NCBI RefSeq assembly: GCF_054482525.1
Contig: NZ_CM137006.1
Length of the DNA stretch: 64,000 nt
Strand: one strand, 5' to 3'
Part shown: piece by piece, positions 57,001 through 60,000 of the stretch
Position numbering within the stretch: position 1 is the stretch's first letter
Layout: every line of letters starts with the position of its first letter
Program-made: the position numbers

Positions 57001-60000
57001 TGATGCAGCAGGCGAAGGTGATTCTGGCGGACGAACCCATCGCCTCGCTGGACCCGGAATCAGCGCGCATCGTGATGGACACCCTGCGCGACATCAACCA
57101 GAACGACGGCATTACCGTGGTCGTCACGCTGCATCAGGTGGATTACGCCCTGCGCTACTGCGAACGCATCGTCGCCCTGCGCCAGGGGCACGTCTTCTAC
57201 GACGGCAGCAGCCAACAGTTTGATAACGAACGCTTTGATCATCTCTATCGCAGCATCAACCGCGTCGAAGAGAACGCGAAAGCTGCCTGACATCCCCATC
57301 ATTGAGGAAAACGAATGAACGCTAAGATAATTGCCTCGCTGGCCTTCACCAGCATGTTCAGCCTCAGCACCCTGTTAAGCCCGGCGCACGCCGAAGAGCA
57401 GGAAAAGGCGTTGAATTTCGGCATTATTTCAACGGAATCACAGCAAAACCTGAAACCGCAATGGACGCCGTTCTTACAGGATATGGAGAAGAAGCTGGGC
57501 GTAAAGGTCAACGCCTTCTTTGCCCCGGACTACGCGGGCATTATCCAGGGGATGCGCTTCAATAAAGTGGATATCGCCTGGTACGGCAATCTGTCGGCGA
57601 TGGAAGCGGTGGATCGCGCCAACGGTCAGGTCTTCGCCCAGACGGTCGCGGCGGATGGATCGCCGGGTTACTGGAGCGTGTTGATCGTCAACAAAGATAG
57701 TCCGATCAACAACCTGAACGATCTGCTGGCGAAGCGTAAAGATCTCACCTTCGGCAATGGCGATCCTAACTCCACCTCTGGCTTCCTCGTCCCCGGCTAC
57801 TACGTCTTCGCCAAAAACAATATCTCCGCCAGCGACTTCAAGCGCACCGTCAACGCCGGGCATGAAACCAACGCGCTGGCCGTCGCCAACAAGCAGGTGG
57901 ATGTGGCGACCAACAACACCGAAAACCTCGACAAGCTGAAAACCTCCGCACCGGAGAAGCTCAAAGAACTGAAGGTGATCTGGAAATCGCCGCTGATCCC
58001 AGGCGATCCGATCGTCTGGCGCAAAAATCTGTCCGAAACCACCAAAGACAAGATCTACGACTTCTTTATGAACTACGGCAAAACGCCGGAAGAGAAAGCG
58101 GTGCTGGAGCGCCTGGGCTGGGCCCCGTTCCGCGCCTCCAGCGACCTGCAACTGGTGCCGATTCGCCAGCTCGCGCTGTTTAAAGAGATGCAGGGCGTGA
58201 AAGGCAATAAAGGGCTGAATGAGCAGGACAAGCTGGCAAAAACCACCGAGATTCAGGCGCAGCTGGATGACCTGGACCGCCTGAACAACACGTTAAGCGC
58301 GATGAGTTCGGTAAGTAAAGCGGTGCAGTAATGTGCTCGATCGGTCCCCTCTCCCTTGAGGGAGAGGGTTAGGGTGAGGGGGAAATGCGCACGCTGATGC
58401 CCTCACCCCGGCCCTCTCCCACAGGGAGAGGGAGAAAACATTAAACGGAGCAATATATGCAAACCATCACCATCGCCCCACCCAAGCGCAGCTGGTTCGC
58501 GCTTCTGAGCTGGGCCATTGTTCTCGCCGTGCTGGTCGTCTCGTGGCAGGGCGCGGAAATGGCCCCGCTCACGCTGATTAAAGGCGGCGGCAACATGGCG
58601 ACGTTCGCCGCCGACTTCTTCCCGCCCGATTTCAGCCAGTGGCAGGATTACCTCACCGAAATGGCCGTCACGCTGCAAATCGCCGTCTGGGGCACCGCGC
58701 TGGCGGTGGTTCTCTCCATCCCCTTTGGCCTGATGAGCGCCGAAAACCTGGTGCCGTGGTGGGTTTACCAGCCCGTTCGCCGCCTGATGGACGCCTGCCG
58801 CGCCATTAACGAGATGGTCTTCGCCATGCTGTTCGTGGTCGCCGTCGGTCTCGGTCCGTTCGCTGGCGTACTGGCGCTGTTTATCCACACCACCGGCGTG
58901 CTCTCCAAACTGCTTTCCGAAGCGGTAGAAGCAATTGAACCCGGCCCGGTGGAAGGTATTCGCGCCACCGGTGCCAACAAGCTCGAAGAGATCCTCTACG
59001 GCGTGCTGCCGCAGGTGATGCCGCTGCTGATCTCCTACTCCCTCTATCGCTTCGAATCCAACGTCCGTTCGGCCACCGTTGTTGGCATGGTCGGCGCGGG
59101 CGGGCTCGGCGTCACCCTGTGGGAAGCGATTCGCGGTTTCCAGTTCCAGCAAACCTGCGCCCTGATGGTGCTGATTATCGTCACTGTCAGCCTGCTGGAT
59201 TTCCTCTCTCAACGGTTGCGTAAGCACTTTATCTGATAAGCGAGGCATTGATAGCTATGCACTTGTCTACACATCCGACCAGCTACCCAACACGCTATCA
59301 GGAGATAGCCGCAAAACTTGAGCAGGAGCTTCGTCAACACTACCGCTGCGGCGACTATCTTCCCGCCGAGCAGCAACTGGCGGCGCGCTTTGAGGTGAAC
59401 CGCCACACCCTGCGCCGCGCCATCGACCAACTGGTGGAAAAAGGCTGGGTACAGCGCCGTCAGGGCGTCGGCGTGCTGGTGCTGATGCGCCCGTTCGATT
59501 ACCCGCTCAACGCCCAGGCGCGTTTTAGCCAGAACCTGCTGGATCAGGGCAGCCATCCCACCAGCGAAAAACTGCTGTCTGTGCTGCGCCCGGCCTCCGG
59601 TCACGTCGCTGACGCGCTGGGGATAACCGAAGGCGAGAACGTTATCCACCTGCGCACCCTGCGCCGGGTCAACGGCGTCGCGCTCTGTTTAATCGACCAC
59701 TACTTTGCGGACCTCACCCTCTGGCCGACGCTGCAACGCTTCGACAGCGGCTCGCTGCACGATTTTCTGCGCGAGCAAACGGGGATTGCGCTGCGCCGCA
59801 GCCAGACGCGGATCAGCGCCCGCCGCGCCCAGGCCAAAGAGTGCCAGCGTCTTGAAATCCCGAATATGTCGCCGCTGCTGTGCGTGCGCACCCTTAACCA
59901 CCGTGACGGTGAAAGCAGCCCGGCGGAGTACTCCGTCAGCCTGACGCGCGCCGACATGATTGAATTCACTATGGAGCACTGAATGCACGCAGATACCGCG

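Follow-up and report, generated by a model that had tools for sequence, protein, structure and literature searches.

An intact, two-repeat-unit phnE allele and a predicted functional PhnCDE phosphonate transporter in an Escherichia coli strain

The window (the whole stretch of DNA that we analysed, 64,000 nucleotides long) contains the phn genes of Escherichia coli from phnC to phnK, all of them present, ordered and intact. The genes follow each other as phnC-phnD-phnE-phnF...K, so that the permease gene phnE has phnC and phnD upstream and phnF downstream (Table 1). The products of phnC, phnD and phnF to phnK are full length, align with their K-12 counterparts in one ungapped block, contain no stops and are 97-100% identical to the K-12 proteins. 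The sequence-only reading had described phnF through phnK as intact, and each of these genes proved to be full length, ungapped and stop-free against K-12. The direct neighbours of PhnE (PhnC, PhnD and PhnF) each score above their own equivalog cutoff. Scanning the window for Rfam families and tRNAs gave nothing relevant to phnE. Elsewhere in the window, melR is split by a 1426-bp IS4-family element flanked by a 13-bp target duplication, and the terminal part of a genomic island (CbeA/CbtA, DUF5983, DUF4942) occupies the left end of the window and departs from the near-identical genome SCU-102 inside tRNA-Phe.

Table 1. Features of the phn locus in the window (positions are those of the whole stretch).
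Feature	Coordinates	Strand	Description
phnC upstream region	56370..56501	+	Near-identical to K-12; Pho-box-like CTGTTAGTCAC...TCAC at ~56425-56457
phnC, ATP-binding subunit of phosphonate ABC importer	56502..57290	+	262 aa; NF007438 606.3 bits (cutoff 365); 258/262 identical to K-12
phnD, periplasmic phosphonate-binding protein	57315..58331	+	338 aa; TIGR03431 376.4 bits (cutoff 261.1); 336/338 identical to K-12
Palindromic dispersed repeat element	58332..58439	.	~107 nt; fills the phnD-phnE spacer
phnE, membrane permease subunit	58457..59236	+	Intact, 259 aa; from ORF, profile and K-12 alignment
PhnE codon 43 (D43G)	58583..58585	+	GGC (Gly); GAC (Asp) in relatives and K-12
Slippage tract	58862..58877	+	Two 8-bp units, GCTGGCGT ACTGGCGC; ORF positions 406-421; from alignment
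EAA-like cytoplasmic coupling loop of PhnE	58952..59011	+	Residues 166-185; 3' of the K-12 frameshift point
phnF, GntR-family regulator	59257..59982	+	241/241 identical to K-12; NF007486 518.6 bits
phnG	59983..60435	+	146/150 identical to K-12, ungapped
phnH	60432..61016	+	188/194 identical to K-12, ungapped
phnI	61016..62080	+	348/354 identical to K-12, ungapped
phnJ, C-P lyase catalytic subunit	62073..62918	+	276/281 identical to K-12, ungapped
phnK	62915..63673	+	249/252 identical to K-12, ungapped
phnL, 5' part	63784..64000	+	First 217 nt; ungapped vs K-12 phnL start; window end cuts gene

Upstream of phnC, the 151 aligned bases between 56360 and 56510 differ from K-12 only at positions 56370 and 56494. 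The Pho-box-like region is identical in sequence to that of K-12, while base 56494 falls in the phnC ribosome-binding site, which reads AGGGAGG in K-12 and AGGGAGT in the window. The PhoB-dependent promoter, as reported by Makino et al. 1991, would lie in this upstream region.

In the spacer between phnD and phnE, K-12 carries a REP-type element, whereas the spacer of the window cannot be aligned with that of K-12 and is 24 nt longer. Folded as RNA, the element that fills it forms one long hairpin (-72.8 kcal/mol, z = -7.46). Between phnD and phnE the element was found in 348 genomes, and 4331 genomes have copies at other sites, 1-5 per genome. We rejected the idea that phnE is cut off by this hairpin acting as an intrinsic terminator, since no terminator-like site was called between phnD and phnE, no U-run follows the stem and the arrangement is common to 348 genomes.

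phnE had been read from the sequence as a single uninterrupted 259-aa ORF at 58457-59236, and the ORF listing of the window gives exactly these coordinates: one ATG-started ORF on the plus strand, with 259 codons and 780 bp. A GGAG ribosome-binding site lies 8 nt 5' of the ATG, and the same start and stop are used in the PGAP annotation of SCU-102. The product matches the NCBIfam PhnE equivalog TIGR01097 with 308.7 bits (cutoff 216.7), over positions 8-251 of the 252 in the profile and residues 16-258 of the protein, and Pfam BPD_transp_1 (PF00528) with 92.9 bits over residues 88-258. The ORF is not due to chance. A homolog search among 1.84 billion representative proteins supplied, from its 150 best matches, the 261 homologous domains that we aligned. 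This family alignment has 45 columns conserved to at least 70%, and in 43 of them PhnE of the window agrees with the consensus. It departs from it at N118, which is also found in K-12, and at L217, in a column occupied by Ile in 76% and by Leu in 20% of homologs. Positions 15, 21 and 43 are variable columns of the same alignment.

A sequence search found no solved PhnE structure. The nearest relative with a solved structure, by sequence, is MetI, the permease of the methionine ABC importer MetNI (PDB 3dhw, 6cvl), and residues 125-254 of PhnE align with residues 80-210 of MetI (PDB 3dhw, E 2.8e-6), that is, with the conserved type-I importer core. The two proteins are distant: PhnE has ~120 extra N-terminal residues, and the substrate and the binding protein differ. 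Inside the MetI-aligning core of PhnE lie residues 166-185, a stretch resembling the EAA coupling motif of ABC importers.

The orthologous locus of K-12 shares its flanking genes and the homologous ATG with the window, and its phnE is annotated in MG1655 (NC_000913.3) as a pseudogene (b4583, 'phnE1'). The sequence-only reading had described K-12 phnE as cryptic and split by a short duplication, and this is indeed the case, since b4583 of MG1655 contains one extra 8-bp GCTGGCGT. Direct alignment of the two genes, which had been suggested as a check, revealed no frameshift in the window gene and one 8-bp unit fewer than in K-12, the number of units being the sole length difference inside phnE. 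Read directly off this alignment, the tract of MG1655 comprises three tandem 8-bp units (GCTGGCGT GCTGGCGT GCTGGCGC), against two in the window; being so short, the tract was not listed by a repeat search. The second unit begins with A in the window and with G in K-12, a silent change from GTG to GTA. From the homologous ATG, K-12 phnE measures 788 bp and encodes the native sequence through Ala140, followed by 49 out-of-frame codons and a stop (189 aa); the RefSeq feature of b4583 is 839 bp long because it begins 51 nt further upstream, within the REP spacer. Since the K-12 frame is broken after residue 140, the whole conserved importer core is lost, including the EAA loop. The cryptic K-12-type allele, with a third GCTGGCGT from ORF position 406 and a +8 frameshift, is absent from phnE of the window, which remains in frame because it has two, and not three, 8-bp units.

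The consequences of this difference have been described experimentally. According to Stasi et al. 2019 (PMC6469041), an 8-bp insertion in phnE keeps K-12 PhnCDE cryptic, and transport returns once 5'-GCTGGCGT (ORF positions 407-414) has been lost by spontaneous deletion. The restored K-12 PhnCDE also imports orthophosphate (Stasi et al. 2019, PMC6469041), and the part of that article citing Makino 1991 and Iqbal 2004 has the Phn+ revertants arising by slippage. phnE+, known from E. coli B and from K-12 Phn+ revertants (Makino et al. 1991; Stasi et al. 2019, PMC6469041), corresponds to phnE of the window in identity and in its position within the phnCDEFGHIJKLMNOP operon. Like the window gene it is 780 bp long (259 aa), with two 8-bp units at ORF positions 406-421, and an allele of this length restores phosphonate and phosphate uptake experimentally (PMC6469041).

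For comparison we obtained the revertant protein in silico, by removing one 8-bp unit from the K-12 sequence. The window gene differs from this K-12 sequence minus one unit at 28 of 780 nucleotides and in 4 residues (S15A, V21I, D43G and I217L), all of which fall at columns that, judging from the family alignment, are tolerant, being either variable or conservatively varying. The window also departs from the revertant phnE+ in the second unit, which opens with A and not G, and in the repeat element of the phnD-phnE spacer, which is a different one. The closest match is found in E. coli SCU-102, 19KM1776 and PCN033 (PhnE WP_001193490.1), whose phnE is identical to that of the window at 779 of 780 nucleotides, has the A-form tract as well and is preceded by the spacer element found in the window. 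The only difference, which is the only one from SCU-102 in phnE, changes Asp43 of these strains to Gly43 in the window.

Altogether, we consider it very likely (probability about 0.9) that the window carries an ordinary in-frame ('ON') phnE allele of a wild E. coli close to SCU-102, 19KM1776 and PCN033, with a working PhnCDE predicted. A functional PhnCDE had been proposed in the sequence-only reading, and the prediction is supported by the restored 780-bp length, by the four differences from the functional revertant, which lie at tolerant positions, and by the intact phnC and phnD. Weighing against it are the private changes PhnE D43G and PhnD A326T, the altered base in the phnC ribosome-binding site and the very stable spacer hairpin, which may affect translation of phnE or processing of the mRNA, although it is shared by 348 genomes.

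The frequency of this allele was determined in 5426 complete E. coli genomes, using short probes designed so that any 28-nt seed crosses the diagnostic junction. The exact probes detected the three-unit sequence in 1012 genomes, the two-unit form with G in 2259 and the two-unit form with A, which is that of the window, in 408, while a three-unit version of the A form was found in 0 of the 5426. Around 1700 genomes escaped all three exact probes because of nearby SNPs; by the span of their matches they resolved as 780-bp alleles in a spread sample of 40 records, evenly spaced down the ranking, of which 31 span 780 bp, 8 span 788 bp and 1 is partly deleted. The in-frame length is thus present in about 78% of genomes and the K-12-type frameshift in about 19-20%. 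The genomes with three units include many non-laboratory isolates, among them one from bovine mastitis in France, whose gene PGAP labels 'frameshifted'. All 8 three-unit alleles of the sample have 95.3-95.6% identity to the window and a K-12-like haplotype, which suggests descent more than frequent switching.

These data bear on a different view of the locus, namely that phnE is a contingency (phase-variable) locus caught in the ON state, in a population that switches between two and three units by slipped-strand mispairing, and that its intactness is momentary. In K-12, selection readily yields OFF-to-ON revertants that have lost one unit, and PMC6469041, citing Iqbal et al. 2004, describes this as reversible phase variation; the spread of the three-unit allele among natural isolates, such as the mastitis strain, also speaks for it. 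However, the shared haplotype of the eight sampled three-unit alleles is better explained by inheritance by descent than by frequent switching in every lineage. Besides, the tract of the window is imperfect, as its second unit begins with A, and no three-unit counterpart accompanies the 408 two-unit A forms. We regard a switching phnE in this strain as unlikely, although the idea keeps some weight.

A related proposal is that the silent change from GTG to GTA leaves phnE of this lineage 'locked ON' and disables the contingency switch. With this change perfect periodicity extends over 14 instead of 15 nt, and 6 rather than 7 bases of homology are available for slippage. The counts are consistent with the proposal, with 0 three-unit against 408 two-unit genomes for the A form and 1012 against 2259 for the G form. 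Shared descent accounts for this contrast at least as well, and a locked switch seems to us doubtful.

Returning to the ordinary in-frame allele, whether its uptake would serve growth on phosphonates depends on the remainder of the operon. A working uptake and C-P lyase pathway had been suggested on the basis of the window, and this stood for phnC, phnD and phnF to phnK, which are intact, but it reached past the window, which breaks off within phnL at base 64000 and does not extend to phnM-P. The transporter could therefore work in a strain that does not use phosphonates, owing to a defect in one of the genes phnL-P, and strain-specific lesions do exist elsewhere, such as the IS4-family insertion in melR, absent from SCU-102. 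Against this, all 14 genes from phnC to phnP are annotated as intact in SCU-102, and over 18,001 aligned bases the window shows only 4 differences from that genome (3 in 12 kb). This closeness to SCU-102 leads us to infer that phnL-P are probably intact in this strain as well, and a lesion in them stands little chance.

An intact ORF could also encode an impaired transporter, and two private missense changes have to be weighed in this regard. A 30-mer with the Gly43 base G matched 0 of the 5426 complete E. coli genomes, while the same probe with A (Asp) matched 2683, and the exact Gly43 protein (WP_458911826.1) is known from a single public contig of 5.1 Mb, against 330 contigs for the Asp43 form. 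The possibility that the zero matches resulted from low-complexity masking of GGCGGCGGC was rejected, because the control for Asp, different in one base, did find its genomes. Given this control and the contig counts of the exact proteins, D43G was accepted as private. The second change, A326T in PhnD (nt 58290), is private relative to SCU-102 and K-12 and affects the C-terminal tail. Together with D43G, located in the first periplasmic loop, it could in principle cause a cryptic loss of function, and 2 of the 4 differences from SCU-102 over 18 kb are nonsynonymous and fall in the adjacent phnD and phnE. Yet two of four SNPs less than 300 bp apart in 18 kb are not unusual (rough estimate, p ~0.2), and PhnD residue 326 falls beyond the match to the family model (residues 1-291). 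As for PhnE, column 43 is variable over 156 diverse domains (G 50, D 24, A 17, S 13, N 10). Because of this variability, and because Gly is the commonest residue of the family at this column, D43G is probably harmless, and the idea that it is damaging was rejected. An impaired transporter behind the intact frame is accordingly very improbable.

Finally, although assemblies can err at short tandem repeats, an assembly or sequencing artefact as the origin of the intact frame is hardly credible, as an identical 30-mer spanning the tract occurs in 408 independent complete genomes and phnE is one base off three independently sequenced ones.

With an ordinary in-frame phnE, the system would be expected to operate as follows. 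Under phosphate starvation PhoB, as is well established, activates the phnC promoter, and would do so in this strain, where the sequence is conserved. PhnD would bind phosphonates in the periplasm and dock on a dimer of PhnE, which would form the channel. MetI is encoded by a single permease gene and forms a homodimer; PhnE is probably a homodimer too, because the locus has only one permease gene. PhnC dimers would power transport by hydrolysing ATP, acting through contacts with the EAA loops of PhnE. The imported alkylphosphonate would then be converted by PhnG-P via ribosyl intermediates, with cleavage of the C-P bond at PhnJ. In this scheme, the integrity of the 8-bp tract would decide whether uptake occurs at all. 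With phnC, phnD and phnF-K intact as well, the strain is predicted to import phosphonates, plus orthophosphate as K-12 revertants do, and should be able to cleave the C-P bond if phnL-P are intact as in its closest relatives.

The phnE locus is well described, and an intact copy is what wild-type strains usually carry; in this respect our results correspond to already known biology. The census, with ~19% of complete E. coli genomes frameshifted, natural isolates included, gives a figure to the published statement that the 'vast majority' are functional. The analysis also illustrates that an intact ORF can conceal private missense changes such as D43G, here checked and judged benign. The strain is to be scored Phn+ for phosphonate uptake, which matters little beyond correct annotation. 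Unlike models based on K-12, in which phnE is a pseudogene, a description of this strain would include PhnCDE as a further means of taking up phosphate and phosphonate-type compounds.

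The K-12-type frameshift of phnE, the permease gene of the phosphonate importer, is produced by three units of an 8-bp repeat where the window carries two (58862-58877), and it is not a laboratory peculiarity. We found the three-unit allele in 1012 of 5426 complete E. coli genomes (18.7%), its carriers including isolates from human, dog, bovine mastitis, river water and vegetable, and in the genomes sampled it lay on a K-12-like haplotype every time. The RefSeq pseudogene feature for phnE in K-12 occupies positions 7444-8282 (839 bp) of L001, the MG1655 locus, and begins in the REP spacer, 51 nt upstream of the ATG used by PGAP for intact phnE elsewhere. 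Counted from the homologous ATG, which matches window position 58457, the K-12 gene measures 788 bp; the discrepancy in the start is an annotation inconsistency, with no biology behind it.

The spacer between phnD and phnE has no homology to its K-12 counterpart. While K-12 carries a REP-type element at this site, the window has a near-perfect palindrome (see table), whose RNA fold is -72.8 kcal/mol (z = -7.46), and the same intercistronic slot is thus filled by two repeat families, depending on the lineage. The palindrome occupies this site in 348 complete E. coli genomes, and 4331 genomes carry copies of ~95% identity at 1-5 places each, in intergenic DNA that has no annotation.

The window and SCU-102, a near-identical complete E. 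coli genome, differ at only four of 18,001 aligned bases (49926, 52702, 58290 and 58584). Three of the differences are nonsynonymous (RdcB A35P, PhnD A326T and PhnE D43G) and the fourth, at 49926, lies 26 nt from the match to the STnc630 sRNA; these counts are too small for selection to be inferred. Compared with K-12, the ribosome-binding site of phnC differs by one base, AGGGAGG having become AGGGAGT at 56494, 8 nt upstream of the phnC ATG.

Features located in the window, with supporting matches
Feature	Position	Strand	Details
CbeA antitoxin ORF	36-302		
CbtA toxin ORF	392-766		
DUF5983 ORF	763-1254		
DUF4942 ORF	1553-2398		
Truncated melR ORF	39086-39679		197 aa; profile positions 8-204 of 309
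IS4-family transposase ORF	39690-41036	-	NF033592, 304.6 bits
STnc630	49952-50117	-	Rfam, 181.8 bits, above gathering score
naRNA4	55784-55861	+	between yjdM and yjdN; Rfam, 85.5 bits, above gathering score
Spacer palindrome	58332-58439		~107 nt; CCCTCTCCC..GGGAGAGGG / GGGTGAGGG..CCCTCACCC

At the left end of the window, collinearity with SCU-102 is absent over positions 1-2508, and the breakpoint falls inside the tRNA-Phe of SCU-102. Judged by its ORFs (CbeA, CbtA, DUF5983 and DUF4942; see table), this segment resembles the distal part of a genomic island that has inserted at tRNA-Phe; an ARAGORN search of the window found no tRNA. Further along, a small GNAT acetyltransferase gene is present twice, as direct repeats of 324 bp that are ~99% identical (12727-13050 and 28356-28679). 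The two copies bound a segment of ~15.6 kb, whose SCU-102 counterpart encodes a fimbrial usher, chaperone and subunit, an S6-family peptidase, an AraC-family regulator and an autotransporter. This repeat-flanked arrangement points to a likely insertion, situated between yjdI and ghoS, which recombination between the repeats could remove.

Finally, the window contains a 1426-bp insertion (39677-41102), absent from SCU-102 and flanked on both sides by a 13-bp duplication, and the IS4-family transposase listed in the table is encoded within it. The MelR ORF stops at 197 aa because this IS4-family insertion interrupts melR. Melibiose use may not be inducible in this strain.
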